Notes: generated by a model not told the origin, from the sequence alone. Shown: positions 1 to 56,935, counted from the stretch's first letter. The stretch: 64,000 nt of DNA from an uncultured Bacteroides sp. (GCA_964453785.1 CAYVRK010000007.1:57511-121510); one strand, 5' to 3'. Numbers and translations are program-made.

Positions 1-372
1 ATCGTTTCCCGGAAATTTGGCGAGAAAATTGGTGTCCAGATGGCCCCTACCTTCGTCTATTACAATGCGGTCCCTGAAGGATACCGCAATGATAACTACT
101 CCCTGAATTTTGGAGGACGTTTCCAGGTGTTTGGCTTTCATTCCATCATATTTGAATATGACCAGCCACTGGTTCAGCCCACTGGGGATAATGCCAAAAC
201 CATCTACCCCAACATGGCACTGGGCATAGAAATCGGAACCAGTACACACGCATTCAGGATATTCGCATCCAATTACAACGCCATCGTCAAGAACAGGAGC
301 GTCGCTTTCAACGACAGAGACCCATTTGAAGGAGATTTCCAGTTCGGATTTAACATCTCGATCAGGTTTTAA
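1..372 (+). CDS. outer-membrane beta-barrel protein, C-terminal part (5' end lies outside window)
   Basis: Frame 1 is open from base 1 (IVSRKFGEKIGVQ precedes the tracked Met at 40). Alternating beta-strand-like pattern (FRIFASNY, FQFGFNISIRF) and a terminal Phe typical of OM barrels. The stop lies 2 nt before the next ATG. Confidence 0.55.
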   Translation: MVSRKFGEKIGVQMAPTFVYYNAVPEGYRNDNYSLNFGGRFQVFGFHSIIFEYDQPLVQPTGDNAKTIYPNMALGIEIGTSTHAFRIFASNYNAIVKNRSVAFNDRDPFEGDFQFGFNISIRF

Positions 373-374
373 CC

Positions 375-1340
375 ATGAGAAACCCAACAATCGCATTATC
401 CGGAATACTGCTGACTTGTGCATTTTCGCTTTGCGCCCAGTCAGTTGATACCACAAAGATCAAACCCGCCTTCCGCGAGGTCAATGAGTATGTGGATGAC
501 AATGAAAACTGTCTCAGATGCCATGGTGAGTTGAAGTATATCATCGAAAACCAGGGCAGGGTCATGACCGAACTGATGTGTCCTGACAGGGTCATCAATA
601 GGGATGCTTACTATTCGGGGGTCCATAAGGCATTTTCATGTTTGGATTGCCATTCGTATGAATTTGAGGTTTTCCCTCATTCGGTGGAAGCCAGGGTAAC
701 TGAGATGCTCTTGTGCATGGATTGTCATGGATACGACGAGACCTTTTCAAAATACCATTTTGAAGACATCGAAATGGAGTTTGCTGAAAGTACCCACAAC
801 ATGCCTGAATTCACTTGCTGGAAATGTCATGATCCCCATTCCTATAAGGCGTTCATGAGAAATGCCGATGATATCGAAGAAGCCGTGCTTTATGACAACA
901 GCATGTGCCTGAGCTGCCATGCGGATTTCAGTCGCTTTATGTTGCTGACCGACAGGAAGGAGATCAATGTGGTAGAGAGCCATAGCTGGTTGCCTAACCA
1001 GGTGGCCCATTTCAGAGCCGTCCGTTGCATTGAGTGTCATACGGAGATCAACGATTCCATCCTGATCGCTCATAAAATCCTGCCAAAATCAGAAGCGGTT
1101 AGAAACTGTACGGAATGTCATGCCAAAGACTCCAGGCTCATGCATACCCTCTACAAATTCGAGAGCCTTGAAAAACGAAAGGTTGGTTTTGTGAACAGCA
1201 TCATGATCAATAACTCCTACGTCATTGGTGCAAACCAAAACGTGCACCTCAACCGCTTAAGTTTGATCGTCTTCGGAATGACCTTACTGGTCATTGGGTT
1301 TCATACCTATTTGAGAATTAAAAAACAGAAAAAAAGCTGA
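375..1340 (+). CDS. heptaheme c-type cytochrome, C-terminally membrane anchored
   Basis: 321 aa with a signal peptide (ILLTCAFSLCAQS). Seven CXXCH motifs: CLRCH, CLDCH, CMDCH, CWKCH, CLSCH, CIECH, CTECH. C-terminal hydrophobic helix LSLIVFGMTLLVIGFHTYL followed by KKQKK. Confidence 0.85.
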   Translation: MRNPTIALSGILLTCAFSLCAQSVDTTKIKPAFREVNEYVDDNENCLRCHGELKYIIENQGRVMTELMCPDRVINRDAYYSGVHKAFSCLDCHSYEFEVFPHSVEARVTEMLLCMDCHGYDETFSKYHFEDIEMEFAESTHNMPEFTCWKCHDPHSYKAFMRNADDIEEAVLYDNSMCLSCHADFSRFMLLTDRKEINVVESHSWLPNQVAHFRAVRCIECHTEINDSILIAHKILPKSEAVRNCTECHAKDSRLMHTLYKFESLEKRKVGFVNSIMINNSYVIGANQNVHLNRLSLIVFGMTLLVIGFHTYLRIKKQKKS

Positions 1341-1341
1341 C

Positions 1342-1965
1342 ATGGCAACTAAAAAAATATATCTCTACCCAATATGGATCCGTCTCTGGCATGTCATCAA
1401 TGCCATGACGTTCCTTTTACTGGTAGCAACCGGGATTTGCCTGCATTATGCCTCTGCTGACAATAGCCTGATCCCTTTTCAGATTTCGGTGGGGATTCAT
1501 AACATTTGTGCCATTGTCCTTTCGGTCAACTATGGTGTTTTTGTCATCGGCAATGTGGTTACAGGAAATGGAAGGTATTACCGGAAGTGGAGAAAAAACC
1601 TTTGGCCCAAACTCTGGAAACAATTCCTTTTCTATGCCGTTGGAATTTTCAAGGGTGAGCCCCATCCCTTCCCCATTACCAAGAAACAAAAGTTCAATCC
1701 ACTGCAGAAAATTTCCTATGTATTTGCCATGTATCTTGGAATGCCTTTGCTGATTATCTCAGGGATTGGGCTCATGTTCCCGGAGAGGATCTCCAATACC
1801 ATATTTAAAATCAGTGGCCTCCTCTTTTATGATGTGCTCCACATCATTGTAGGCTTTGTGCTTTCCCTCTTCCTTTTGATTCATCTCTATACCTGTACTT
1901 TGGGCGATAAACCGGGTACTTTGTTTAAGAGCATGATCAACGGATACCACGAGGAACATGAATAA
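1342..1965 (+). CDS. membrane cytochrome b (FdnI/PhsC/HydC-like diheme b subunit)
   Basis: 207 aa with 4-5 hydrophobic helices carrying conserved His (WHVINAMTF, GIHNICAIV, VLHIIVGF, LLIHLY). No CXXCH. The ATG lies 1 nt after the upstream stop, suggesting translational coupling. Confidence 0.75.
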   Translation: MATKKIYLYPIWIRLWHVINAMTFLLLVATGICLHYASADNSLIPFQISVGIHNICAIVLSVNYGVFVIGNVVTGNGRYYRKWRKNLWPKLWKQFLFYAVGIFKGEPHPFPITKKQKFNPLQKISYVFAMYLGMPLLIISGIGLMFPERISNTIFKISGLLFYDVLHIIVGFVLSLFLLIHLYTCTLGDKPGTLFKSMINGYHEEHE

Positions 1966-2095
1966 GTCCTTTTTTTCAAAGTGACTTATATTCAGACTAG
2001 TTATAAATAGATCCTACAATTGGAGATATGTTAATAGTTGCATATAAAAATCACTATTTTAACGTGCTCTTAACAACCAAGAACCTGATCACTGA

Positions 2096-4894
2096 ATGGG
2101 TCATAAAACCGATATTTCCTCTCGGGCAATAAAATTTCTGGGGCTATTGCTGCTGTCAGCATCCCTTCCACAGGTCTCCCTTTTCTCCCAATCCAATGAG
2201 GATTGCATGATGTGCCATGAGGATATTGAACTGGAAGGCATGTTGCGTGGAAGGAATGTATCCATGTTTGTGGATACCACGGTTTTTGAACGATCAGTCC
2301 ATCACGGCAACAGCTGCCTCTCCTGCCATGCGGATGCCGCAGATGAAGGCTTCCCCCACGCCGATGATCTGAAACCCGTCAACTGTGGCAATTGCCATAC
2401 CCAACAAATGGCAGATAACACCAAGGGTATTCACGGACAGGCACTCCTGTTGAATGATCCCAATGCGCCCAGCTGTAAAGAGTGCCATGGTCACCACGAT
2501 ATCCTGTATTATACCGATCCCAAATCCAGGACCTATAAAATGAACATTCCCATTTTATGCGGGACCTGTCATCGTGAAGGGGAAGTGGTTGCAAGGGCAT
2601 ACAACGTATCCGAACACAATATCGTTGAGAATTATACCCAGGGCATCCATGGAAGGGGCTTATTCGAAGCAGGGCTCATTGTAACAGCAACATGCAATGA
2701 TTGCCATGGCAACCACCTGGTGCTTCCGCATACAAGTCCTAATTCATCCATTTCACCCAACAGGATCGCTGGGACCTGCATGAAGTGCCATACCCGTATT
2801 GAAGAGGCTCACAAGAAGGTCATCAAAGGTGAATTATGGGAAAAGAATCCATCGGTCATCCCCTCCTGCTCACAGTGTCATCCTCCTCATAAAATTGATG
2901 TTCCCCAAATCCAGGCAAGGGTTTCGGATAACAAATGCATGAAGTGCCATAAGGAAGCAGATGTACATAAAATGGTTGACGGTGAACGTGTTTCTCTCCA
3001 GGTGGATGACAATATACTACCCAACTCGGTCCATAAAAATATACAATGCACCAAATGCCATACAGAGGTCACTGATCACCTCCCACGCCCCTGTTCCACC
3101 AACAAACCAGTGGACTGTTCTTCGTGTCACGCCGAAGTTTTTGATAATTATTTTAAAAGTGGCCACGGGCAGGCCCATTATAACAATGTGGAGAATGCCC
3201 CTTATTGTACCGACTGTCACGGTACCCATGCCACCAAATCCAGGTATGACGATACATCACCAGTATACCGGACAGCTATTCCATCGCTTTGTGGAGAGTG
3301 CCATAAGGAGGATGGTAAGGCACCCCGGTCCACTGAGTTGAAAGAGGTGGATGCCTTTGCCGATTATTCCATGAGTGTTCATGGTCAGGGACTCACAAGC
3401 AAGGGACTGACCGTTAGTGCAGTTTGTACAGACTGCCATACCACCCACCTCATGCTGAAGGAATCCAATCCCGAATCATCAGTACACCCTTCCAATGTCC
3501 AGCAAACCTGTGGAAATTGTCACAAAGGGATCCTTGAACAGTACCTGAAGAGTGACCATTCCTTTACCGAAGAGTTTCCAAAAAAGGAGTATCCAACCTG
3601 CGTGAGGTGCCACACTGCTCACGGGATCTCGACTGTGAGTCAGGACAAATTCATGAATGAGGTCACCACCCAGTGCGGATCCTGCCATGAAGAAACTGCA
3701 AAGACTTTTCTGAAAACCTATCATGGCAAAGCGTACCAGCTGGGTTACTACGAAACGGCCCGATGTTCTAATTGTCACGGTTCCCATAACATCTTAAAGG
3801 CTGAGAATCCCGAATCAATGATTGCAGAACAGAATCTTGTCACCACATGCGGAGCATGTCACCCGGGAGCGAACAAACGTTTTACAGGCTATTTAAGTCA
3901 CGCTACCTATAAGGACGATCCCAAATTGCATGTCGCTTATATCTTTATGACTGCCCTGTTGCTGGGTGTATTTTTCTTCTTCGGCATTCACCTGCTCATG
4001 TGGCTTCCGCGTTCAGTTTCAGAAAGGAGAAAGAAAAGAAAAGAGGAACCCAGGGAGATCGGGAACCAATACATCAAACGCTTCTCCCGCAATCAACGGA
4101 TCACCCACGTCTTTGTAATCATCAGTTTCATCCTGCTAGCACTGACCGGAATGATGCTTAAGTTTGCCAATATGGAATGGGCCAAATTTCTGGCAAGACT
4201 CATGGGTGGGGTGCAAAACGCCGGAGTTCTGCACCGTATGGGAGCTGTCATTACATTCGGTTACTTTTCCTTTCACATCCTCAACCTGGTGAGAATGAAG
4301 AGAAGGAAAAGGCTCTCCATGACCAAATTTATTTTCGGGAAGAATTCGCTCTGGTTTAATAAGCAGGATATTCTTGATTTCGTGGCCACCATCAAATGGT
4401 TTGTGGGCAAAGGACCAAGGCCCAATTATGGCAGATGGACCTACTGGGAGAAGTTCGACTACCTGGCTGTTTTCTGGGGGGTAGCCATCATTGGTTTCAG
4501 TGGCCTGATACTATGGTTTCCTGTACTCTTTACAAAGTTCTTTCCCGGCTGGGTGATCAATTTTTCACAGATCATCCACAGTGACGAGGCCCTGTTGGCC
4601 GTTGGTTTCATCTTTACAATTCACTTCTTTAACACCCATTTCCGGCCGGAAGCATTTCCGATGGATACAGTCATATTCACCGGCCATATGCCCCTGGAGC
4701 ATTTCAAACATGAAAGGCCGCGTGAATATCAGGAATTGAAAGATTCAGGAAAGCTGGAAGAAGCCATCGTGGAAAAACACTATTCAAAGGAGAACATGAG
4801 GTTGATCCGGCTCTTCGGATTCCTTGCCCTGGCCATTGGTGTGATCCTGATTGGGTTCATCGTCTTCACCTTCATTTCAGGAGGTGGACACTAG
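2096..4894 (+). CDS. 19-heme c-type cytochrome fused to a six-helix cytochrome-b-like membrane domain
   Basis: 932 aa with a signal peptide. Nineteen CXXCH motifs between residues ~37 and ~590 (CMMCH ... CGACH). Six hydrophobic helices follow, with His-rich helices ITHVFVIISF, VLHRMGAVITFGYFSFH and IIHSDEALLAVGFIFTIHFFNTHF. Confidence 0.85.
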   Translation: MGHKTDISSRAIKFLGLLLLSASLPQVSLFSQSNEDCMMCHEDIELEGMLRGRNVSMFVDTTVFERSVHHGNSCLSCHADAADEGFPHADDLKPVNCGNCHTQQMADNTKGIHGQALLLNDPNAPSCKECHGHHDILYYTDPKSRTYKMNIPILCGTCHREGEVVARAYNVSEHNIVENYTQGIHGRGLFEAGLIVTATCNDCHGNHLVLPHTSPNSSISPNRIAGTCMKCHTRIEEAHKKVIKGELWEKNPSVIPSCSQCHPPHKIDVPQIQARVSDNKCMKCHKEADVHKMVDGERVSLQVDDNILPNSVHKNIQCTKCHTEVTDHLPRPCSTNKPVDCSSCHAEVFDNYFKSGHGQAHYNNVENAPYCTDCHGTHATKSRYDDTSPVYRTAIPSLCGECHKEDGKAPRSTELKEVDAFADYSMSVHGQGLTSKGLTVSAVCTDCHTTHLMLKESNPESSVHPSNVQQTCGNCHKGILEQYLKSDHSFTEEFPKKEYPTCVRCHTAHGISTVSQDKFMNEVTTQCGSCHEETAKTFLKTYHGKAYQLGYYETARCSNCHGSHNILKAENPESMIAEQNLVTTCGACHPGANKRFTGYLSHATYKDDPKLHVAYIFMTALLLGVFFFFGIHLLMWLPRSVSERRKKRKEEPREIGNQYIKRFSRNQRITHVFVIISFILLALTGMMLKFANMEWAKFLARLMGGVQNAGVLHRMGAVITFGYFSFHILNLVRMKRRKRLSMTKFIFGKNSLWFNKQDILDFVATIKWFVGKGPRPNYGRWTYWEKFDYLAVFWGVAIIGFSGLILWFPVLFTKFFPGWVINFSQIIHSDEALLAVGFIFTIHFFNTHFRPEAFPMDTVIFTGHMPLEHFKHERPREYQELKDSGKLEEAIVEKHYSKENMRLIRLFGFLALAIGVILIGFIVFTFISGGGH

Positions 4895-4895
4895 T

Positions 4896-5585
4896 CTATT
4901 GGACCACAGTGGAATTCTCCAGCAGAACTTCGTAGCTGTAGCCGTATCCGAAATCCAGGTTCAAAGCCAGGATGCCTTCAAGGATTACCACTGTGCCCAC
5001 TTCCAATGACTCCATGGAAGTGGCTGTGAGGTCGAATTTGCCTTCAAATTCGGTCCCGTCCTGCAGATGTACCCAGTTTCGCTCCATAATGGCCGGATTA
5101 TACTTGGTGACCTCTCCTTTTACACGAACTGTTTTCCCTTCATAAGCCTCCGGATCAGCATAGATCTCTGCAATTGTAACCGTACCTTCAACCCTTTCCA
5201 CTGCGACCTTAACCTTCTCTTTGGGGGCCATGCTGCCAGGAGTCATCTCCTGTACAGGCATCACTTTGGAATCATCACCCATAAAAAGAGCCTCCACGAA
5301 AAGAACCTCATCAAATGTACGGTCGAGCTCTTTGCTGTAAAAATCCTTCATAAGCATCCCTCCCTGATAATGATAGGTCTCTCCAGGACTGGCCTGCATG
5401 GTGGGTACGGCAATCCAGAATTCAGTTTTCTTACTTTTGACCAGCAGGTAGGTATAATCGCTCACCTGCTCGACTGCCTGTACTTTAACGGTGTTATCAG
5501 TGTTTTCTGCTTTGTTCCCGCAGGAGGATGCAGTGAGTATCAATAAGAGGATGATCAGGTGGTTCAGTTTCGCTTTCATTTTCAT
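4896..5585 (-). CDS. lipoprotein of unknown function with OB-fold-like C-terminal domain
   Basis: 229 aa with a lipobox (LLILTASSC followed by GNK). The segment GKTVRVKGEVTKYNPAIMERNWVHLQDGT resembles periplasmic bacterial OB-fold proteins. The gene abuts the convergent 19-heme gene with a 1-nt gap. Confidence 0.6.
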   Translation of the reverse strand: MKMKAKLNHLIILLLILTASSCGNKAENTDNTVKVQAVEQVSDYTYLLVKSKKTEFWIAVPTMQASPGETYHYQGGMLMKDFYSKELDRTFDEVLFVEALFMGDDSKVMPVQEMTPGSMAPKEKVKVAVERVEGTVTIAEIYADPEAYEGKTVRVKGEVTKYNPAIMERNWVHLQDGTEFEGKFDLTATSMESLEVGTVVILEGILALNLDFGYGYSYEVLLENSTVVQ

Positions 5586-5663
5586 TCAATTTTATAAGTA
5601 CCTTTTTCAAATATATTTTGCGCGAAGATACAACAAACGGGAGAATAGATTGACAATTCTTTT

Positions 5664-7163
5664 CTAATACAGGGCTCTGTGACAATCCGAACAAGCCATC
5701 TCCTTCCACGCCTCCCCAATGTCTACCGGGTGCCTGAAATCCAGAGCGTTATCAATGGTTGTGGATTCATAATTGTCTGGCCCGCCCTGAGCAAGGATTG
5801 TATGGCACAGATTACAATCCCTTGAAATGATGCGTCCATCTTCACTTTGATGATTCCCGTTATGGCATCTGAAGCACCCGTTGAACTCCATGTGGCCAAT
5901 ATGAATCGGATAGGCGTTCCAGTTCACTTTCATTTCAGGAAAGATGTTTTTTGAATATCCTTCAAGCAACCCGTCAATTGTCATTTGGATCAGGTCCTGG
6001 TTTTTTTCATCAATTTCCGGATAAGCAGACTTGTAAAACGCTTCAACGCTCTCCCTGATCTGGACCTTGCCCGAATCCCGGTCCGTAAACTCCTGGTTGA
6101 ACACCTGCATGGCAAGAAATTTCACCTCGGGAAGTTCAGCGGGAATGCTTCCTGCAGCGATCAGGTCGTCGGTAAACTTCTGAGGTGCCTGGTAATTGTG
6201 TGAGGGCCGGTTGTGGCAATCCAGACAGTCCATCTCCCTGATTTCTAAAGTATCAAAAGCTTCGGGACCAACAGTTTCATAGATATCCTGGTAAATTACA
6301 GTGTCCCCGGTAGCCTTATCAATATAGCGTACCCAGGGTATATATTCTCTCTTTTCAGAAGAAGCCAGGTAATCTATTTTAACATCGCTGTGTATATGCC
6401 AATGAATTCCTTCCTGCAAACCCAGGGCACTGCTCTTGGATCCGATTTTCATTTTAAGCTGGATATCCCACTCCGTATTTGCTGAATCGGCCAGATAATT
6501 TCTTTCGTTTCTTAACCGGTAGGAGTAAAATTTCTCCGGCCAGTGGCACTCTTCACAGGTCTCACGTGCTGGTCTCAGGTTATGGATGGGCGTTTTTATG
6601 GGTGTAGGATATTTATGAAAGAGAACAGAATATACCTGGTACATTCCCGACAATTTGCTTTTTACGTACCAGCTTGCTCCGGTCCCCACATGGCATTCCA
6701 CACATGCGACCCGGGAGTGTGCCGACTCCTGATAGGCCACATACTCGGGTTCCATGACCTGGTGACACAGGGTTCCGCAGAACTCGTTTGATTCCGTATA
6801 ATGAAAGGCCTGGTAACTGCCTATTCCGGTTAACATGAGAAAGACAATGGTGACGAAGATAAAGACCGCCACAGCATTCCATTGCCTCGAGTCCCTCAGG
6901 TCAATGACCATCCATCTCCTGGTACCCTCTTCACCTTCGCGCCTGATTCTCTTAGCCCTCCTGGACATACCAACCGGGATCAGAATGAGGCCTATAATCA
7001 AAAATACCGGAAGCACAATATAAGTGATGATTCCCGTATACGAACCCCCCTCATGAAACAACCAATTGGTAAGCATCAAAAAAATAACACTCAGGATGCT
7101 CACGGCTGCAATGATGCTGCCGAGCATTGAAAGCGGATTGTAAAAAGTCTTCGGGAATTTCAT
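5664..7163 (-). CDS. membrane-anchored NapC/NirT-type multiheme cytochrome (ImcH-like)
   Basis: 499 aa with two N-terminal TM helices (LGSIIAAVSILSVIFLMLTNWLF, IITYIVLPVFLIIGLILIPVG) and a third (AVAVFIFVTIVFLMLTGIG). One CX3CH (FCGTLCH) plus six CXXCH: CVECH, CEECH, CLDCH, CFRCH, CNLCH, CSDCH. Confidence 0.8.
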   Translation of the reverse strand: MKFPKTFYNPLSMLGSIIAAVSILSVIFLMLTNWLFHEGGSYTGIITYIVLPVFLIIGLILIPVGMSRRAKRIRREGEEGTRRWMVIDLRDSRQWNAVAVFIFVTIVFLMLTGIGSYQAFHYTESNEFCGTLCHQVMEPEYVAYQESAHSRVACVECHVGTGASWYVKSKLSGMYQVYSVLFHKYPTPIKTPIHNLRPARETCEECHWPEKFYSYRLRNERNYLADSANTEWDIQLKMKIGSKSSALGLQEGIHWHIHSDVKIDYLASSEKREYIPWVRYIDKATGDTVIYQDIYETVGPEAFDTLEIREMDCLDCHNRPSHNYQAPQKFTDDLIAAGSIPAELPEVKFLAMQVFNQEFTDRDSGKVQIRESVEAFYKSAYPEIDEKNQDLIQMTIDGLLEGYSKNIFPEMKVNWNAYPIHIGHMEFNGCFRCHNGNHQSEDGRIISRDCNLCHTILAQGGPDNYESTTIDNALDFRHPVDIGEAWKEMACSDCHRALY

Positions 7164-7293
7164 CAGGATTAGGTCTTTAAATGCAGCATGTCATCAAAAA
7201 GTTATCAGTAAAAATTACGGAATTCATCTTCAACATCAAAGGAAGTTAAAGGACGGTTGGCTTATCTGGAATAATTCTTGGCAGAGGAACCAT

Positions 7294-7323
7294 TAAAAAA
7301 CCTCCGGCAAACCAGACCGGAGG
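7294..7323 (-). terminator. rho-independent terminator after tetraheme cytochrome gene
   Basis: Stem CCTCCGG (7301-7307) / CCGGAGG (7317-7323) with a 9-nt loop. A-run 7295-7300 on plus gives a U-run after the stem on the minus strand. About 40 nt past the stop. Confidence 0.7.
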
Positions 7324-7363
7324 TTCTTTGATTAGCTACAGACCTGCCATTCAGGTATGTTGG

Positions 7364-7894
7364 CTAGTTCGCAGCAGGATTAGGATGGGCAATCTTTGCT
7401 GAAAACTCGGCATAATTAAATGCCTTATAGGTTGGGCTCCCTGAATTATGGCAGCTCTTGCATACCTCTTCTGTAGGCAGAATCATTCCTTTTTGCAAAG
7501 CCAATTCCTGGTTTTTCATGATTGAGGCTCCCTTATACATACTTCCCGGACCATGACACGACTCACATGAAACGCCTTCAGACATCACAATTCCGGCCAC
7601 CAGGCTTTTGTCAATATGACCAACTGTGGAGTGGCATTTAACACAGGCCGCATCGGTGGTCGGATCAGCAATTCCCTTTGCAGTGGCAATTTTCTTTGCT
7701 TCATCCGTGGCTAGGGTCTTCATGGCATTGGCATGGGGTCCCTTGAGCCAGACATTATACTGATCACCTGTAGCCGGCTTCATATGGCACATTTTACACT
7801 TTGCTGAACCGATGTATTTGAAATCCTGGGCTTGCAGAAACGTGCCAGCAAAAAAGGCCAGAACAACGAGGAATAATAATTTCTTTGATAACAT
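7364..7894 (-). CDS. periplasmic tetraheme cytochrome c (cytochrome c554-like small multiheme)
   Basis: 176 aa with a signal peptide ending FLQAQ. Four CXXCH: CKMCH, CVKCH, CESCH, CKSCH. The N-terminal pattern YIGSAKCKMCH..W..GPHANA is typical of the c554-type family. Confidence 0.85.
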   Translation of the reverse strand: MLSKKLLFLVVLAFFAGTFLQAQDFKYIGSAKCKMCHMKPATGDQYNVWLKGPHANAMKTLATDEAKKIATAKGIADPTTDAACVKCHSTVGHIDKSLVAGIVMSEGVSCESCHGPGSMYKGASIMKNQELALQKGMILPTEEVCKSCHNSGSPTYKAFNYAEFSAKIAHPNPAAN

Positions 7895-8024
7895 AGCGAT
7901 AAGATTTTAGTTAACTATAAAGTTCTTTGATAAAAATATTTATTTCTTAAGAGAATAACTTCAAACTTCGGGCCATATATTGAAAATAGGCCACTATTCA
8001 GAATCATCCTAAATTCCGAACACT

Positions 8025-8063
8025 AAAAAAAACCAGGCCGCCCCATACCCATGAGACGGCCTG
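8025..8063 (-). terminator. rho-independent terminator after rhodanese gene
   Basis: Stem CAGGCCG (8034-8040) / CGGCCTG (8057-8063). The A8 run at 8025-8032 on plus gives a U-run on the minus strand. About 25 nt past the stop. Confidence 0.7.
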
Positions 8064-8087
8064 ATTAATGAGGGTTCTAAGGAATCT

Positions 8088-9059
8088 TTAGTCAACTACA
8101 TAATCGTAACCCATGATGGAACTTGCACTCCATTTGTGGCTGGACAGATCGCTGTAGATCATTCCATTGGCTCCGAAAAGCAATGTTTTTGCATCGTAGC
8201 CGATTACACGAAGGTAGGCAGCCATGTTGGCACTGGTCTGCCCGGTCCAGCAATAAACAACCACAGCCTTATCGGTGGGAAGGGTTTTCAGATCACCATC
8301 AAGGCTCATGCCCACTTTGGGGGTATATTGCATGGCTCCCGGAATATGCCCGATTTCTGTGTAATCTGCTTCGGCCCAGTAATTGGCAATGTAGTAGCTT
8401 TCCAGGGCTCCGAATACCGTGGCATTGGTAATCTTTGCAGGATCGAATCCTTCTGCAAAAACTTCTTCAATCCGCGCATCCAAAATCTCTTTTCCGGTTT
8501 TAAATCCCGTATTCAATACGGGGAGTTCTCCTTCCGGACCCTTCTCAGTAGCGTCTTTTGTAAATTCTGAGGTATACATACTTTTGGTATTGTTGTTCCA
8601 GCTACCGGCAAAGTCAGTATTCCATGAACACATTCCGAATCCCATGGAATAGGCATTGTCATACCCGGCTAGTCTCAAAAGGCAGGTTGCCCAGGCTGCT
8701 GTCTGGCCGGAATAACATACAATAATGATCTCATCTTTGCTGTCATCGTCAGTTGTGCCTTCAAGATGAGTAAGCACATCTTTGGAAGAAACATTCACAG
8801 CATTCTCGATATGTCCAAGTGCATAATCAGCAGCTGAACGGATATCAATGATGTAGTTGGCTCCCGTGGTATTCAGTGTTTTTACATGCTCTGCGCTTAC
8901 AATGGCAGGCATGGCTGTGGCAGCATAGTTGCCTCCATCGGCTGACTCAAGATACTCCACAAGGACCTGCGCTTCGTTGACATCTTCTTCTTTATTACAA
9001 GATACAGCGAACAAAGCAAGGAACAGGATGGCTACCATCCAGATTTTTGTCATTTTCAT
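8088..9059 (-). CDS. tandem-rhodanese (sulfurtransferase) lipoprotein
   Basis: 323 aa with lipobox LFAVSC followed by NKEEDV. Two rhodanese-like domains, each with a candidate active-site Cys loop (VCYSGQTAAW and YCWTGQTSAN). Confidence 0.8.
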   Translation of the reverse strand: MKMTKIWMVAILFLALFAVSCNKEEDVNEAQVLVEYLESADGGNYAATAMPAIVSAEHVKTLNTTGANYIIDIRSAADYALGHIENAVNVSSKDVLTHLEGTTDDDSKDEIIIVCYSGQTAAWATCLLRLAGYDNAYSMGFGMCSWNTDFAGSWNNNTKSMYTSEFTKDATEKGPEGELPVLNTGFKTGKEILDARIEEVFAEGFDPAKITNATVFGALESYYIANYWAEADYTEIGHIPGAMQYTPKVGMSLDGDLKTLPTDKAVVVYCWTGQTSANMAAYLRVIGYDAKTLLFGANGMIYSDLSSHKWSASSIMGYDYVVD

Positions 9060-9110
9060 AATCGTTTTATTTCTTTTTTTGGTTTAACATCTAGATATAT
9101 AACATTCAAT

Positions 9111-10478
9111 TTATTTAGTCCATGAAGACGGCAACTTTCCATCTACGGTCATAAATTCGGAAGAAGACAATTCCCAGTCCTCCAGCAAATCAGACTTGAA
9201 AAGGAAAAGATTTCTATTGACCATTGAATCGCCTTCCATGCGGATGTGGCAGTTGAAAGAACATCCTTGTCCTGGTTCAACATGGGTCCGTGAGGTCCAC
9301 TTCAGAATATTATGTGGTGAAGTGTAGTTGTAGATTGGTAATGCATCGAAGTCCGCATATTCATCAACGCCGTACATCTCCCAGTTATCTGGAGCTCCAA
9401 GTGTCCGCCTGACCACTGTAAAATCAGAATTAAATCCATTTTTAACTTCAGGAATGGGATTGATGGCGATTTTAAAATCCATATAAGAAGGGACCCGTGC
9501 ACCCTCGCCGTGCACATGACAGCTTCCACAGTTGTTGTAATCCTGTGAATGGCAAACATAACAGCTGAAATCTCCGTAGTGCATTGAATGGTAGTTATTT
9601 GCAGTTTCGACACCATCATGACAATCCTCACATTCGGGTAGTTCACTGTAGGCGTACCGCTGCTCCACAGGCTGACCGTCTCCGTGAAGTTCATGACCAT
9701 CATGACAACTGAGGCATTCAAATTTCAGTTTTTTCTGATGCACATCGGGCTCGGTACCGGGAGCAACACCCAGGAAGGCATGTCCTCCCCTGGATACATG
9801 ACAGGTCACACATACATTGAGCATATGCGGGGTCTTGTTGAAATTATGCCCCTTGGACAACCCGCCCCCACCGGAAGCCGGGCGAACCACATGGCAATTC
9901 CCGCAGGTACCATGGCAATGTGCACAGTTGTCGTTATAACCCTCAATCTGATGCGCTGGCAGCTGGTCAAAATCCTGGGAACCATTCAGGCCGCTTCTGA
10001 TGGCCACTTTCCTTTTCTGGCCTGTACCATTATGGATGCTTGTGGTAAAATTATCCGCAATGTCCTTGTGGCAGGTTCCACACTTTTCTTCATAATAGAG
10101 TGATGGGTGCTTGATGAAATCGCCTGTATGGGCCAGCTCTTTTTCCCCGGTATTACCTACTCCGTTGTGGCATCCTGTACATCCGACGGAATAGTGCCCT
10201 GAGCTTTTAAAGGATTCATATCCTTCTCCCCCCATATATACCCTGTCATAGGGCTCATAATGGGGAGCCTCTCCGCCACATCCGCCAACAGGAGCATCTG
10301 TATCTGGCGTGTAGACTGCAATCAGCCTTTCGTAATCCGTATGGCATCCTTCGCAGGAATTTGCCTTGACTTCTCCGTTGCCTTTTCCCGGAATGGTATA
10401 ATTGGTACATGCGATGCCGGTAAAAACAAACACCACAAATAACAATAGCAGACCAGATCCAAACTTAATTCCTTTCAT
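9111..10478 (-). CDS. decaheme c-type cytochrome lipoprotein
   Basis: 455 aa with lipobox FTGIAC. Ten CXXCH: CEGCH, CTGCH, CGTCH, CAHCH, CGNCH, CVTCH, CLSCH, CEDCH, CYVCH, CGSCH. One additional CX3CH (CSFNCH) near the C-terminus. Confidence 0.85.
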   Translation of the reverse strand: MKGIKFGSGLLLLFVVFVFTGIACTNYTIPGKGNGEVKANSCEGCHTDYERLIAVYTPDTDAPVGGCGGEAPHYEPYDRVYMGGEGYESFKSSGHYSVGCTGCHNGVGNTGEKELAHTGDFIKHPSLYYEEKCGTCHKDIADNFTTSIHNGTGQKRKVAIRSGLNGSQDFDQLPAHQIEGYNDNCAHCHGTCGNCHVVRPASGGGGLSKGHNFNKTPHMLNVCVTCHVSRGGHAFLGVAPGTEPDVHQKKLKFECLSCHDGHELHGDGQPVEQRYAYSELPECEDCHDGVETANNYHSMHYGDFSCYVCHSQDYNNCGSCHVHGEGARVPSYMDFKIAINPIPEVKNGFNSDFTVVRRTLGAPDNWEMYGVDEYADFDALPIYNYTSPHNILKWTSRTHVEPGQGCSFNCHIRMEGDSMVNRNLFLFKSDLLEDWELSSSEFMTVDGKLPSSWTK

Positions 10479-10655
10479 AGCTAATCCTTCTTCTGATAAT
10501 TTTCGTTAAGTATTGAACTCTTTCTGTACTTGGCACTTAAACTAATACATGATGTGGGGTGATTCTGCCTGTAAAGATTGGTGTTTTGGCTCAGAAGTAA
10601 AAGGAAACGGTATAGGAATATTTATATGTTTGAGTTGATCTAAACGGACTTATCG

Positions 10656-10671
10656 ACTGATACAGATCAGT
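10656..10671. promoter_or_regulatory. perfect 6-4-6 palindrome ACTGAT-ACAG-ATCAGT, Fnr/Crp-box-like
   Basis: Read directly from the sequence. The core TGAT-N4-ATCA matches the FNR consensus TTGAT-N4-ATCAA in 8 of 10 positions. Lies in the divergent region between the decaheme gene and the Crp/Fnr gene, about 41 nt upstream of the crp ATG. Confidence 0.5.
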
Positions 10672-10690
10672 GTTTTTCATGATTCTTTTG

Positions 10691-10698
10691 TATATTTG
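10691..10698 (+). promoter_or_regulatory. Bacteroidota-type -7 promoter element (TATATTTG) for Crp/Fnr gene
   Basis: Matches the TAnnTTTG consensus, 14 nt upstream of the ATG at 10712. Confidence 0.4.
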
Positions 10699-10711
10699 CT
10701 ACCTGAAGTAA

Positions 10712-11416
10712 ATGACTAACATGGACAATTTGGAAAGATTTTCAGGTTGCACCCTAAGCTTTCACCAGTGTAGATGCTTTGAAACACTGACGGTGGAACA
10801 GAAGGAATTTCTGGATGCCCACTCTGTAAGGATCAAATACCGCAAAGGTGAAATGATTTGCAAGCAGGGTGGCTTTGTTTCACATGTCATGTATATGGAA
10901 CAGGGCCTTGCAAAAGTCTTTTTGGAAAACGGATCCAATTCCCTGGTTTTGAGGGTTATTCCGGACGGAAACTTCCTCGGTCTTGCTTCTATTTCCGAAG
11001 AGCATTCCACTTTCCCTTATTCAGCCATGGCTTACGTGGATTCGGATATAAGGCAGATCGACATCCATGCTTTCCGTAAATTGATGGAACTGAATAACCA
11101 ATTTGTAAAGGAGATTATCAATATCCTCAGCGCAAACAGTCTCCAGATTTACGGCAGGTTCTTCTGTCTCACTTACAAACAGGCTTTCGGCAGACTGGCA
11201 GATATCCTGCTATGCCTTGCCGACAGAATATTCAAGAATACGGAATTTGACCTGCCCCTTTCCCGAAAAGAGCTGGCAGAACTTTCCGGTATGAGTTCGG
11301 AGACTGTGATCCGGATGCTGAAAGAATTTAAAGAGGAAGGCCTGATCAGGATGGATGGAAAAGCAATCCAGGTGATGGATTATGAAAGGCTGAAACAGAT
11401 CAGTGATACCGGGTAA
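10712..11416 (+). CDS. Crp/Fnr family transcriptional regulator
   Basis: 234 aa with a cNMP-binding-like beta-roll (YRKGEMICKQGG...) and a C-terminal HTH (SRKELAELSGMSSETVIRMLKEFKEEGLI). N-terminal Cys cluster C13-X6-C20-X-C22. Confidence 0.85.
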   Translation: MTNMDNLERFSGCTLSFHQCRCFETLTVEQKEFLDAHSVRIKYRKGEMICKQGGFVSHVMYMEQGLAKVFLENGSNSLVLRVIPDGNFLGLASISEEHSTFPYSAMAYVDSDIRQIDIHAFRKLMELNNQFVKEIINILSANSLQIYGRFFCLTYKQAFGRLADILLCLADRIFKNTEFDLPLSRKELAELSGMSSETVIRMLKEFKEEGLIRMDGKAIQVMDYERLKQISDTG

Positions 11417-11484
11417 AAAACAAAAGGATGCCCTTTTGAGACACCCTTTTGCAATTTCATAGTCAATTTGAGCAAATCTCTCCC

Positions 11485-12609
11485 CTACTTTTCCGATAAG
11501 GCTTCAATTGTATTTTCAAGAACAGCTGCTATATAGGCCGGATTGTGAAATCCATGACTCCTGTCTTCCTTGATTGCACTATAGTTAACATGAGCCGCTG
11601 TCAGTGATGTACTGAATACACCAGGCTTCATCAGGTACGCATCGCCACCAGCATCAGAAGGATACATAATTCCTGCATCCACCAGAAGGGTATATAACTG
11701 ATCCAACAGTCCATCGGTTTCTGCCATGACTTCCTCAACTTTATCATCAAGGTTTTCGGCGATACCACCATCCGAATGGCACTCCAGGCAGGATGCAGGC
11801 CAGTTATAGGTCTCACTCCCATGGAATTCCCAGGTCATGGCCATGGAGTGTCCTGTGAGGTCACCAAATCCATCATTCATATGACAGGTAACACATCCAT
11901 TCTCAACTTTTCCCAGAACATGATGACTGGTTGGATAGGCAGTACTTCCCGTGAACTCAAAAAGATCCATTCCCGTAAGTAAATTATACTGTGGACCATG
12001 ATGAACACCAGTGCGGTTCATTGCTGCAGTGATGGTAACTGTCGTTGTGCCAGCGTCAAAATTTGCCCACAATGAATCTACCACAAGGGAAGAAGCTACC
12101 ATTTGGTGACATGAAGCGCACTGATTTCCGGTACCTATATCCACACCCATAGAGCCAGTCGCCGGCTCTGGCATACCTGCATTGGTCAGCCCCCAATCTG
12201 CCTCGGTATAAGTGTCATGAATGTTATGGCATGTGTAACAATTTGGTTGTGTAACATTCGCATAAGGTGTATTACTGGCACCAACCAGATTATCAAGAAA
12301 ACCCTGGCTGGTATGACATCCGGCACAATTGTAAAGTGGCCCAAAGGTCCTGTTTGTATACCCGGAGACATCTCCCGTTGAATGCCCTGAGTTTGCATAT
12401 TGCCTGGACTTTGTGACAATCACTTGATCATCACTATGACATACAGTACAGGTTGCATTGGCATCTATACCATCAATACCATCCGTACCATTTTCACCAT
12501 CGAGGCCAGGAGGCCCTGCCGGACCTTCGCAACTGCTCAGGATAAATGCGCCTGCAAGGAGGATCGCAAAACCACTAAGCAGACTGATCATAGAAATATT
12601 CTTTTTCAT
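11485..12609 (-). CDS. hexaheme c-type cytochrome lipoprotein with N-terminal collagen-like (GXY)7 segment
   Basis: 374 aa with lipobox ILSSC. This is followed directly by E-GPA-GPP-GLD-GEN-GTD-GID-GID. Six CXXCH: CTVCH, CAGCH, CYTCH, CASCH, CVTCH, CLECH. The C-terminal helix contains SHGFHNPAY. Confidence 0.85.
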   Translation of the reverse strand: MKKNISMISLLSGFAILLAGAFILSSCEGPAGPPGLDGENGTDGIDGIDANATCTVCHSDDQVIVTKSRQYANSGHSTGDVSGYTNRTFGPLYNCAGCHTSQGFLDNLVGASNTPYANVTQPNCYTCHNIHDTYTEADWGLTNAGMPEPATGSMGVDIGTGNQCASCHQMVASSLVVDSLWANFDAGTTTVTITAAMNRTGVHHGPQYNLLTGMDLFEFTGSTAYPTSHHVLGKVENGCVTCHMNDGFGDLTGHSMAMTWEFHGSETYNWPASCLECHSDGGIAENLDDKVEEVMAETDGLLDQLYTLLVDAGIMYPSDAGGDAYLMKPGVFSTSLTAAHVNYSAIKEDRSHGFHNPAYIAAVLENTIEALSEK

Positions 12610-12940
12610 AGCTATAAGATTTTGCTTAAAGATATCTGTGCAATTTTACCTGTTCAACTTTTCACAATAGAGATATCCCGATACCGAAACGGCATCACAC
12701 TGACATCCCGTCGACATATATCGATTCATTCACCGTTTCCGCCCCGGAACCATGAGCACAGTTTACCTTATTGCTCTCTCTGCCTGAATGTTATTCTGAT
12801 GGTACCGGAAAAAAATGCAATGGTTAACTTTGACCAAAAACAATCAACGGGTTATAAACATGCGCTGCAGTACGTCATATTTTAACATTTGATTGCCACA
12901 CACCGGTCTTTTTCGGGGCGGTTATTTGAAATACCTTTGC

Positions 12941-52969: not shown

Positions 52970-54754
52970 TTAAATCTGGAAAATCTTTTTACGCTTATCG
53001 AAATAGTGGGTGTGCAAAAGTACATGTGCCTTTTCGCTCAATGGTTCGCCCAGGAATTCATCGTATAGCTTCACGATGTATGGATTCTCATGGGATTTCC
53101 TGATGGTTTTTCCTTCATCCTCCCTGTAGATGGCTCTGGTCCTGGCCTGAAGAATGGAGGAATCTCCATGGTGGAGGGGCTGGCCACCACCTCCAATGCA
53201 CCCCCCGGGGCAGGCCATCACCTCAATGGCGTGGTACTGGGATCTCCCTGCTTTCACATCATCCAGTAATTTTCGTGCATTACCCAATCCATGTGCTATG
53301 CCTATTTTGATATTCAATCCGTCAAAATCAACAGTCGCAGACCGGATCCCATCCATTCCCCTGAGCTGTTCAAAGTCAACTTTTTCGAGCGTTTTCCCGG
53401 TATAAAGTTCATAGGCTGTCCGGGTGGCCGCTTCAATGACACCACCGGTGGCCCCAAAGATCACTGCTGCGCCTGAAGACTCTCCCAGCGGGGCATCAAA
53501 CTCATCCTCCTCCAGTTTATTGAGATCCATGTTGGCCTGCTTGATCAGGTGGGCCAGTTCGCGGGTAGAGATGCTGTAGTCCACATCCGGGTTTCCATCC
53601 ACCGAAAACTCTTCACGCTGGCATTCATATTTTTTGGCGAGGCAGGGCATGATGGAAATAACCACCAAATCTTTCCTGTTCACCTTGATCTTATCAGCAA
53701 AATAGGTTTTGGCTATGGCACCGAACATCTGCTGGGGAGAACGGGCAGTGGAAGGCACGTCCTTCAATTCGGGATAATTGTGCTCAAAGAAGTTCACCCA
53801 TCCCGGGCAGCAGGATGTAAGGATGGGAAGTTTCACACGCTCATCACCCTCCAGGTGCCTTTTTAAACGTCCCAGCAGTTCGGTTCCCTCCTCCATGATG
53901 GTCAGGTCGGCAGCAAAATCGGTATCAAACACATAATCAAATCCAAGCTGTTTGAGAGCTGTAACCATCTGGCCGGTTACCCTTGTTCCGGGCTCCATTC
54001 CAAACTCTTCTCCAAGAGCTGCCCTGACTGCCGGAGCTGTCTGTACAATTACTGTTTTAGAGGGATCATTCAATGCTGCAATAACTTTGCCTGTATGATC
54101 CACTTCAGTCAGTGCCCCTGTGGGACAAACAGCCACACACTGTCCGCAATAAGTACAGGGCGAATGCTCCAGGTTCATCTCAAAGGCCGGAGCGACCACG
54201 GCATTGAAACCCCGGTTCACTGCGTGCAAGGCCCCCACGGTCTGGAAATCATTACACATGGTTTCACACCTCCGGCACATGATGCATTTATCCAGATCCC
54301 TGATAATGGAAGGGGAAGTGTCGAGACGGTAAGTTGACATCTCAGCATATTCCTGTCCCGGAATTTCCCTGATTCCAAGCTTTATTGCCATGTTCTGCAG
54401 GTCGCAGCTACCAGATTTTGGACAAGAGAGGCAATCCTTGGGGTGATCCGACAGGATCAGTTCCATCACCGTTCTGCGCGCATTGATCACCCGCATGCTG
54501 TTGGTTCTTACGACCATGCCTTGGGCCACATCTGTGGAACATGAAGGAGCCAGATTTTTCCTGCCCTCTACCTCCACTGAACATATTCTGCAGCCGCCGG
54601 GTTTATTCTCTATATTCAAATCTTTCAGATCCATGTAGCAAAGGATGGGTATCTCTATGCCCAACTCTTTTGCTGCTTTGTAGATGGTGGTTCCAGCCGG
54701 AACCTCCAGTTGATGACCATCTATGGTTATTTTTACAGGACTCATTGCTTTCAT
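52970..54754 (-). CDS. hydA: [FeFe]-hydrogenase catalytic subunit (group A, HydA/HndD-type)
   Basis: N-terminal 2Fe-2S ferredoxin-like domain and two 4Fe-4S motifs (CIMCRRCETMC, CTYCGQCVAVCP). H-cluster motifs TSCCPGW, MPCLAKKYE and EVMACPGGCIGGGGQP. Confidence 0.95.
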   Translation of the reverse strand: MKAMSPVKITIDGHQLEVPAGTTIYKAAKELGIEIPILCYMDLKDLNIENKPGGCRICSVEVEGRKNLAPSCSTDVAQGMVVRTNSMRVINARRTVMELILSDHPKDCLSCPKSGSCDLQNMAIKLGIREIPGQEYAEMSTYRLDTSPSIIRDLDKCIMCRRCETMCNDFQTVGALHAVNRGFNAVVAPAFEMNLEHSPCTYCGQCVAVCPTGALTEVDHTGKVIAALNDPSKTVIVQTAPAVRAALGEEFGMEPGTRVTGQMVTALKQLGFDYVFDTDFAADLTIMEEGTELLGRLKRHLEGDERVKLPILTSCCPGWVNFFEHNYPELKDVPSTARSPQQMFGAIAKTYFADKIKVNRKDLVVISIMPCLAKKYECQREEFSVDGNPDVDYSISTRELAHLIKQANMDLNKLEEDEFDAPLGESSGAAVIFGATGGVIEAATRTAYELYTGKTLEKVDFEQLRGMDGIRSATVDFDGLNIKIGIAHGLGNARKLLDDVKAGRSQYHAIEVMACPGGCIGGGGQPLHHGDSSILQARTRAIYREDEGKTIRKSHENPYIVKLYDEFLGEPLSEKAHVLLHTHYFDKRKKIFQI

Positions 54755-54756
54755 TG

Positions 54757-56520: not shown

Positions 56521-56533
56521 TTCAGTTCCTCCT

Positions 56534-56935
56534 TTATTCCTTTGATTCGATGGTTTCGTAGTTTACCGGGATGATTCCATTCACCAGTTCACCACCTTTG
56601 ATATATTTCTCAATGATCTCATCGGCTTTCGCCGGGTTCACCCCGCCGAAAACCACTGGTTCACTATCCGGCAGAGTCACCTCAATGGTAGGCTCAGCAT
56701 AACAATAGCCCATGCATCCTGTCCGGGTAACCAGGGCATCCACGCCGCGCTTTTCCAGTTCCTCAATCATAAATTCCATGGTATCCTTGGCACCCGATGC
56801 AATGCCGCATGTGGCCATAGCCACCTTCACAAGCACCAGATTTTCGGATGATTCACCCTTTTCCCGGGCCTGCAATCCTGTGATTTTTTCATCACGGATC
56901 TTTTTCAGATCAACCAGTGATTTGATTTTTTCCAT
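56534..56935 (-). CDS. thioredoxin-like [2Fe-2S] ferredoxin domain protein (HndB-like)
   Basis: 133 aa with Cys in MATCGIASGA and TGCMGYCYAEP. It is the first gene of the hydrogenase operon. Confidence 0.75.
   Translation of the reverse strand: MEKIKSLVDLKKIRDEKITGLQAREKGESSENLVLVKVAMATCGIASGAKDTMEFMIEELEKRGVDALVTRTGCMGYCYAEPTIEVTLPDSEPVVFGGVNPAKADEIIEKYIKGGELVNGIIPVNYETIESKE

Follow-up and report, generated by a model that had tools for sequence, protein, structure and literature searches.

Only a few points at which electrons pass from the quinone pool into extracellular electron transfer can be recognised, and CbcL-type proteins are one of them; finding them in uncultured bacteria serves as a basis for predicting that these respire metals or electrodes. 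CbcL itself (GSU0274 of Geobacter sulfurreducens) is a bc-type inner-membrane menaquinol oxidase that is needed for acceptors below about -0.1 V, with nine CXXCH motifs within the protein's N-terminal half plus six transmembrane (TM) helices within its C-terminal half (PMC6295460; 10.1101/2023.05.03.539133). Zhong and Shi (2018; PMC6295460) reported homologs from 15 phyla, five of them from Bacteroidetes, which range from 416 to 1034 amino acids (aa) and from 3 to 23 motifs, share 28.6-100% identity, and mostly have six TM helices with conserved histidines. Here we examine a gene at positions 2096..4894 (+) of a 64,000-nucleotide (nt) stretch of DNA from an uncultured Bacteroides sp. (GCA_964453785.1, CAYVRK010000007.1:57511-121510), the whole of which is referred to below as the window. 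Its 932 open codons specify 19 CXXCH motifs followed by a six-helix membrane domain, and the product is quite probably an inner-membrane bc-cytochrome of the CbcL/MtrH/MtoC family, most likely working, by analogy with Geobacter CbcL, as a menaquinol:periplasmic-cytochrome oxidoreductase.

A motif scan of the 932-aa protein found exactly 19 CXXCH motifs, all within residues 37-585, and no CX3CH or CX4CH variants; 38 of the 39 cysteines lie inside these motifs, C333 being the sole outsider. This density cannot be chance, and the 19 motifs are kept in 40 of 40 aligned homologs, with one homolog showing 18 plus a variant. A Sec-type signal peptide is predicted at residues 1-31 (2096..2188, +), where residues 12-30 are hydrophobic and are followed by 'SQSNEDC', with the first heme motif directly after; the homolog consensus here reads '...AQSNEDCMMCH', and we infer the position of the cleavage site. 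A first-pass annotation, made from the sequence of the window, had described a signal peptide, 19 CXXCH motifs and six C-terminal helices in a single polypeptide, and this is borne out by the 932-codon open reading frame (ORF), the motif count and the helices of an AlphaFold2 (AF2) model. About 580 residues with 19 predicted c-hemes are expected to lie in the periplasm after Sec export and heme attachment, tethered by a first TM helix (TM0) to an FdnI/HydC-type bundle with a sixth helix.

Several characteristics of the CbcL/MtrH/MtoC family are evident in this protein: an exported N-terminal multiheme c-domain precedes a C-terminal membrane domain in one polypeptide, the membrane domain is homologous to HydC/FdnI and has conserved histidines in its TM helices, and the six helices run parallel to those of GSU0274 with an offset of ~312-328 residues (in GSU0274, of 619 aa, the motifs fall at 34-257 and the TM helices at 285-611; Table S2 of PMC6295460). 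Residues ~272-928 align with CbcL-type 9-heme proteins that served as proxies for GSU0274 (P0160, P0325, P0365 and P0358 in our set) with 34-36% of positions identical (E values of 1e-114 to 1e-128), and an MtoC-like protein from the Magnetococcales (P0220) is 32.5% identical to the 19-heme protein, values inside the published range of the family. The clusters of seven CbcL-/MtoC-like representatives held no Geobacter entry, and a homolog search seeded with P0160 returned proteins of Syntrophaceae, Deferrisoma and 'Deltaproteobacteria', none of them with the exact motif positions of GSU0274.

The first-pass annotation had also proposed that the protein follows the logic of CbcL, and its place in the family together with the identity to CbcL-type 9-heme proteins supports this. 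Two further parts of that proposal did not survive. The domain order, which had been thought opposite to that of CbcL, is the same, because two papers put the CbcL hemes N-terminally and the six helices C-terminally; GSU0274 has an identical layout. The description as an extreme version of CbcL was overstated, given the published range of 3-23 hemes, the 19-heme members already tabulated, and the forms with 15-22 hemes in our own scan. Table S2 of PMC6295460 lists two Marinilabiliales proteins of 931 and 932 aa (PLX00698.1 and PLX02355.1) and a protein of 913 aa from Bacteroidetes HGW-4 (PKP08298.1), each with 19 motifs and six TM helices. The design of the protein is already known, both the heme range and the 19-heme Marinilabiliales members having been published in 2018.

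In the membrane domain, the AF2 model places helices at residues 609-646, 665-689, 706-738, 783-807, 819-848 and 898-928. TM0 (residues 613-635; 3932..4000, +) is a predicted anchor helix running from periplasm to cytoplasm and carries H632; TM1-TM4 (residues 665-848; 4088..4639, +) form an FdnI/HydC-type four-helix core, putatively di-heme-b; and the sixth helix, TM5 (residues 906-927; 4811..4876, +), would leave the C-terminus in the periplasm according to hydropathy, AF2 and charge pattern. Lysine and arginine together number 12 in the 34 residues of 636-669 and 14 in 732-788, with 1-2 in the short periplasmic loops. The loop after TM0 is therefore predicted to be cytoplasmic, on account of its 12 positive residues, and the pattern fits a periplasmic c-domain with cytoplasmic loops at 636-669, 732-788 and 847-905. 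This is the topology anticipated in the first-pass annotation, on which hydropathy, the positive-inside pattern and AF2 agree.

Histidines occur in TM0 (H632), TM1 (H671), TM2 (H713 and H727) and TM4 (H828, H843 and H848). The earlier suggestion of three helices with paired histidines thus holds for TM2 and TM4, which have two and three, and fails for TM1, where the 'ITHVF' segment contains the single H671. Five candidate b-heme histidines have been described in CbcL, one each in helices 1-3 and two in helix 5 (10.1101/2021.04.15.440034), and the five-histidine pattern H632, H671, H713, H828 and H843 matches this description. All five are invariant or present in 40 of 41 sequences among close homologs. 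In a MAFFT alignment of 96 diverse b-domains of the family, H713 and H828 are conserved in 100%, H843 in 98%, H632 in 97%, H671 in 96% and H848 in 90%, and H727 in 64%, its conservation being limited to the close clade.

Profile and structure comparisons lead to the same fold. The Pfam model PF01292 (Ni_hydr_CYTB) scores 36.1 bits against a gathering cutoff of 30.1, and the FdnI-type NCBIfam models TIGR01583, NF007924 and NF007558 match residues 658-885 at 35-41 bits against cutoffs of 116-341. These latter scores are far under the curated cutoffs and an identity as FdnI equivalog was rejected; genes for a molybdopterin or iron-sulfur subunit that could represent the partners FdnG and FdnH were likewise absent from positions 1-12609. 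A phmmer search of the PDB gave E. coli FdnI (1kqf_C) as the only sequence relative of the membrane domain (E 8.6e-6, 21% identity), and Foldseek with the AF2 model returned the same chain as the only significant match (TM-score 0.78, root-mean-square deviation 3.8 Å, 237 columns); the model has a predicted local distance difference test (pLDDT) score of 70-84 over this domain. In the phmmer alignment H18 of FdnI pairs with H671, and the other three FdnI histidines, which we take to be the ligands H57, H155 and H169 of 1KQF, pair with H713, H828 and H843. A membrane domain of the NarI/HdrE/DsrM kind was considered and dismissed, as no such family appeared among the Pfam, NCBIfam or PDB matches, where PF01292 of the FdnI/HydC type stood alone. 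The first-pass annotation had left the choice between these families to be checked, and Pfam, NCBIfam and both PDB comparisons come down on the FdnI/HydC side; its claim of bis-His heme b ligation also gains, the membrane histidines being conserved. The bundle has four putative canonical ligands for two stacked b-hemes, H671 (4106-4108, +) with H843 (4622-4624, +) on the cytoplasmic side, and H713 (4232-4234, +) with H828 (4577-4579, +) on the periplasmic side.

The heme domain carries a record of its origin. The distances between successive motifs read 37,23,30,28,45,28,30,23 and then 37,23,30,28,45,28,30,25,30,28, and a self-BLAST aligns residues 59-287 with 303-533 at 35% identity (E 2e-51). 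In the 11-heme members of the family the motifs are spaced 37,23,30,28,45,28,30,25,30,28, and these proteins are ~243 residues shorter than the 19-heme protein; one of them (P0123, residues 38-687) is 48% identical to residues 277-928, with residues 6-345 giving a secondary match to the same region. On the basis of the repeated spacing, the self-alignment and the alignment with the 11-heme protein, the 19-heme chain is best explained as an 11-heme unit whose first eight hemes were duplicated in tandem. Module A (residues 32-276, hemes 1-8; 2189..2923, +) is then an ancient copy that arose in tandem from hemes 1-8 of that unit, and module B (residues 277-605, hemes 9-19; 2924..3910, +) the 11-heme unit, homologous to the 9-heme c-domain of CbcL. 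A 22-heme representative of 1005 aa (P0135) is an exact 11+11 repeat. We regard this 8+11 origin as a modest new point of the present analysis.

Bis-His ligation of hemes has been measured in the c-domain of CbcL (PMC9129911). In the 19-heme protein, close homologs share 18 invariant non-motif histidines of the c-domain and a further three that hardly vary, enough for nearly all of its c-hemes to be, apparently, bis-His ligated. H602, just past the last heme, is conserved in 100% of the 96 family members. Residue 605 (nt 3908-3910) is tyrosine in the window protein and histidine in 40 of 41 close homologs; since the position varies between P, H and Y across the wider family, the exchange probably does not matter. 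The c7 and nanowire_3heme models match the last three hemes. The decaheme DmsE/MtrA model TIGR03508 reached 77.7 bits, with partial matches only, against a cutoff of 192.2, and membership in that group was rejected on this score and for a protein that is membrane-anchored with 19 hemes and not a soluble decaheme. Searches of the PDB with the c-domain, both as single sequence and as profile, gave only weak matches, to 28pb_A ('Cytochrome c', E 2e-5) and to 3oue_A (E 7.5e-4), the latter labelled only 'Cytochrome c family protein' and presumably a fragment of GSU1996; no close solved structure for the c-domain was among these sequence matches. The full-length AF2 model has a mean pLDDT of 64.9, with blocks of the c-domain at 33-79.

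The 19-heme form is by no means peculiar to this window. Searching 5.8 billion proteins for homologs brought up over 120 clusters, ~930 aa in length and 59-91% identical, with the same set of Pfam domains, mostly from metagenome-assembled genomes (MAGs) of Bacteroidota. When GTDB was scanned with one genome per species, at least 592 genomes had a relative; among the best 80 of these, to which the locus counts below refer, 73 have one uninterrupted ORF with exactly 19 CXXCH motifs. By record label the carriers are Bacteroidota (Prolixibacteraceae, Draconibacterium and the cultured Maribellus sp. YY47), Ignavibacteriales/Chlorobiota, Calditrichota, Aminicenantes/Acidobacteriota, Latescibacterota, Eisenbacteria, KSB1, Zixibacteria, Krumholzibacteria, Gemmatimonadota and Myxococcota. 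This breadth, at least 73 species genomes in about ten phyla by record label, is a modest addition to what was known.

These data also bear on the integrity of the gene. Just upstream, at 375-1965, the window has an unfused pair of a multiheme cytochrome and a cytochrome b gene, and both arrangements therefore exist; nothing else favours the idea that assembly or annotation joined two such genes into the ORF, and we consider this extremely unlikely. The clusters of ~930 aa come from independent sources, the same single ORF is seen in the 73 species genomes, and in almost all heme-bearing representatives a single polypeptide carries the b-domain C-terminally. The first-pass annotation was right to read the gene as one true polypeptide, a fusion artefact being excluded by the recurrence of the ORF.

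To place the heme number in context, the b-domain (residues 596-932) was searched against 1.84 billion representatives, yielding 2432 matches at E<=1e-3 and 414 at E<=1e-30. CXXCH motifs were counted in the best 150 matches, of which 99 bear them, with modal counts of 11 (20 representatives) and 9 (18 representatives). Ten of the best 150 have at least 15 hemes, namely 15 (two), 17 (three), 18 (one), 19 (three) and 22 (one). The 19-heme form thus lies in the upper tail of the distribution, yet is a conserved and widespread subtype. One representative (P0245, 716 aa) has its b-domain at residues 11-254 followed by seven CXXCH motifs, the one clear case of reversed order among the ~99 heme-bearing representatives; it could be either a true variant or a fusion made in gene calling.

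The gene resides in a cytochrome island that occupies positions 1-12609 of the window. Upstream, a DUF5777 beta-barrel gene that the window start truncates, leaving its 3' end (40..372, +; PF19089, E 2e-25), encodes a candidate outer-membrane component. It is followed by a CbcA-like 7-heme cytochrome c gene (375..1340, +), whose product has a C-terminal TM helix with a histidine ('IGFHTYL'), and by a gene for a CbcB-like, PhsC-like cytochrome b of 207 aa (1342..1965, +; NF011582, 189 bits against a cutoff of 204). Downstream, and on the minus strand, are a lipoprotein (4896-5585), an ImcH-like cytochrome of 499 aa (5664..7163) with three TM helices, one CX3CH and six CXXCH motifs, a small c554-like tetraheme periplasmic cytochrome that is a candidate electron acceptor (7364..7894), a tandem-rhodanese lipoprotein (8088-9059) and a 10-heme lipoprotein with ten CXXCH and one CX3CH (9111-10478); a Crp/Fnr regulator (10712-11416) and, again on the minus strand, a 6-heme lipoprotein (11485-12609) complete the island. 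In the ImcH-like protein the TM helices (13-31, 44-62 and 97-115) are followed by the CX3CH at 129 and CXXCH motifs at 154, 203, 313, 430, 450 and 491, positions almost superimposable on those of ImcH (GSU3259: 132, 156, 205, 311, 428, 448 and 486; Table S3 of PMC6295460). The ImcH-like gene is missing at the matching position in the nearest relatives of the window (L001, L002 and L047).

Much of this arrangement recurs among the 80 related loci. The c554-like tetraheme gene is the commonest neighbour (35/80), the ImcH-like gene adjoins the 19-heme gene in 30/80, a pair conforming to the description of CbcBA (10.1101/2021.04.15.440034) is syntenic in 24-31/80, and a DUF5777 gene is present in 22/80, directly upstream of cytochrome genes. 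A co-directional core is found in ~20 Prolixibacteraceae-type loci, including cultured Maribellus sp. YY47 (L014, 4804-18380) and L017, in the order Crp/Fnr regulator, 6-heme lipoprotein, 1-heme lipoprotein, DUF5777, CbcA-like, CbcB-like, 19-heme, ImcH-like and c554-like gene; in Maribellus sp. YY47 and Prolixibacteraceae MAGs the array ends with a ~1030-aa ResB-CcsA fusion for System II cytochrome c biogenesis. Loci from other phyla frequently have the 19-heme gene by itself, or accompanied by no more than the ImcH-like and c554-like genes. A full-length DUF5777 copy in Maribellus sp. YY47 (L014, 7196-8107) has 303 aa and scores 228 bits; a literature search found no mention of DUF5777, and the barrel might contribute the outer-membrane portion of a porin-cytochrome-like conduit. 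The rhodanese and 10-heme pair accompanies the 19-heme gene in only 3-4/80 loci and hints at a sulfur-linked side function of the island in this window. A scan for sigma-70 promoters and terminators over positions 1-12800 gave a promoter signal no better than that of shuffled sequence, such a scan being uninformative for a Bacteroidota genome. The rest of the window is what an anaerobic Bacteroidota genome typically contains, and includes a protein with a type IX secretion system (T9SS) tail, a TonB receptor and a type III glutamine synthetase, as well as a HydABC-type [FeFe] hydrogenase (52970-56935, -) composed of a large subunit with a NuoG-like N-terminus, a Nuo51-like flavoprotein and a 133-aa ORF, which suggests an anaerobe that ferments and cycles H2.

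By analogy with Geobacter CbcL, menaquinol would be oxidised in the membrane domain, the quinol site lying probably on the cytoplasmic side, as in FdnI and as has been argued for CbcL (10.1101/2023.05.03.539133). Electrons would then cross the membrane via both b-hemes, with little or no contribution to proton motive force, enter the c-domain at the membrane-proximal heme (C585/H589, with H602 nearby) and run along the 19-heme chain. Exit could occur through the distal hemes to periplasmic or outer-membrane cytochrome systems encoded nearby, such as the c554-like tetraheme, the lipoprotein multihemes and the DUF5777 barrel, and the final electron sink may be extracellular or other low-potential acceptors.

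Several points weigh against this interpretation. The function is carried over from a Geobacter protein of ~35% identity, and the pairwise comparison behind it was made with 9-heme proxies that share the motif spacing of GSU0274 and not with GSU0274 itself. The FdnI-type NCBIfam scores fall under their curated cutoffs, so that the predicted membrane domain is no FdnI equivalog, and both the heme b content and the quinol site are features that we infer. No feature separates quinol oxidases from quinone reductases in this family (PMC6295460), and the direction of electron flow is not readable from sequence. Outside Bacteroidota, moreover, the gene is often without neighbouring cytochromes in the 80 loci, and for this reason the partners are not fixed.

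The question of direction leads to the reverse working, in which the protein would be a quinone reductase supplied with electrons by a donor outside the cell or in the periplasm (Fe(II), a cathode or a syntrophic partner), as proposed for MtoC. The family does include MtoC of Fe(II) oxidisers, with no sequence feature to tell the directions apart (PMC6295460), and the C-terminal spacing of 25,30,28 is nearer to the MtoC/MtrH type than to the 28,43,28 of Geobacter CbcL. However, the island carries an ImcH-like gene, and ImcH homologs are reported only from Fe(III) reducers (PMC6295460); menaquinone reduction by Fe(II) would in addition be uphill, and electron disposal fits a window that looks like that of a fermentative anaerobe with a HydABC-type [FeFe] hydrogenase better than lithotrophic uptake does. 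We therefore judge the reverse working to be distinctly unlikely. Service as membrane anchor and electron donor of a periplasmic reductase for soluble substrates such as sulfur compounds, and not in extracellular electron transfer, appears very unlikely: the tandem-rhodanese lipoprotein (8088-9059, -) beside the 10-heme protein and the 189 bits of the upstream cytochrome b on the thiosulfate-reductase PhsC model could be read in this way, but the rhodanese and 10-heme genes are seldom found with the 19-heme gene (the 3-4 loci above), the island has no catalytic subunit (molybdopterin enzyme, NrfA or octaheme reductase), and the PhsC score is under its cutoff of 204, the label 'thiosulfate reductase-like' being typical of CbcB homologs (10.1101/2021.04.15.440034).

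A different question is how far the heme chain itself reaches. It could be, along the lines of the first-pass annotation, a rigid wire that spans the periplasm and contacts the DUF5777 barrel and the lipoprotein cytochromes directly, without a soluble shuttle. The 19 hemes come from c7/NrfB/MtrA-like modules, and DUF5777 and lipoprotein multihemes are co-located in Bacteroidota. The 10-heme MtrA measures ~8 nm and the 12-heme GSU1996 ~12 nm, and a linear 19-heme chain could reach ~15-19 nm. Against such a wire, the commonest neighbour (35/80 loci) is a small c554-like tetraheme, a protein of the periplasmic-shuttle kind, and Geobacter CbcL passes its electrons to the soluble PpcA (10.1101/2023.05.03.539133); the AF2 c-domain is of low confidence (pLDDT 33-79), leaving a straight chain without geometric support, and in many phyla no outer-membrane partner is nearby. 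We consider the wire unlikely, and extend the same doubt to its evolutionary counterpart, an anchored wire tuned in length by block duplication (from 9 or 11 to 19 to 22 hemes), by which the quinol oxidase itself would reach the DUF5777/lipoprotein module. If the wire were real, Bacteroidota, Calditrichota, Ignavibacteriota and their relatives would possess an Mtr-independent and largely shuttle-free route for extracellular electrons.

Under the preferred reading, as a menaquinol oxidase delivering to periplasmic cytochromes, the surroundings of the gene carry the wider message. Homologs of all three inner-membrane menaquinol oxidases of Geobacter (CbcBA, CbcL and ImcH) are present in one island of an anaerobic Bacteroidota genome, and because they share that island, the case for respiration with extracellular acceptors by bacteria of the Prolixibacteraceae/Marinilabiliales type is strengthened. 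That CbcBA-, CbcL- and ImcH-like genes lie together in one conserved island is a modest new point, and Maribellus sp. YY47 provides a cultured carrier of the 19-heme gene.

Several known systems can be compared with the window protein. GSU1996-type nanowire cytochromes, which are polymers of c7, likewise extend a multiheme chain by duplicating small heme modules, but GSU1996 is soluble, has 12 hemes and no membrane domain, and the similarity is weak (E 7.5e-4). FdnI, the cytochrome b556 subunit of formate dehydrogenase-N (1KQF chain C), shares the four-helix di-heme-b fold and the four aligned histidines; the 19-heme protein differs in its extra helices TM0 and TM5 and its fused multiheme domain, and FdnI uses formate-derived electrons for menaquinone reduction, whereas menaquinol oxidation is the presumed role of CbcL-type proteins. 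CbcBA of G. sulfurreducens, composed of an unfused 7-heme CbcA with a C-terminal TM helix and a di-heme CbcB, is a two-gene version of the same logic, with a histidine at the cytoplasmic end of the CbcA-like anchor helix as of TM0; the b-subunits, however, are only distantly related (24% identity, E 1e-5), CbcB being PhsC-like with four TM helices and three histidines. MtoC and MtrH of Dechloromonas, Gallionella and Rhodoferax, the 9-heme branch of the family that is linked to MtoAB/MtrAB clusters, have the same architecture and identical last three spacings (25,30,28), but 9 hemes in place of 19, and the window gene has no mtrAB or mtoAB nearby, its neighbours being CbcBA-like, ImcH-like, c554-like and DUF5777 genes. 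CbcL shares the signal peptide, the N-terminal multiheme c-domain, the gap of ~24 residues and the six TM helices with an FdnI/HydC-type b-domain; it belongs to Desulfuromonadia and has 9 hemes with a membrane-proximal spacing of 28,43,28, whereas the 19-heme protein belongs to Bacteroidota and has the spacing 25,30,28. The 19-heme homologs of Zhong and Shi have 913-932 aa, with 19 CXXCH motifs and six TM helices: subtracting 4 from the motif positions of the window protein gives those of PLX00698.1, two of our homologs (P0057 and P0109) carry exactly the PLX00698.1 positions, and the group of PLX00698.1, PLX02355.1 and PKP08298.1 differs from the window protein by sequence divergence only (~60% identity), so that all represent the same kind of protein.

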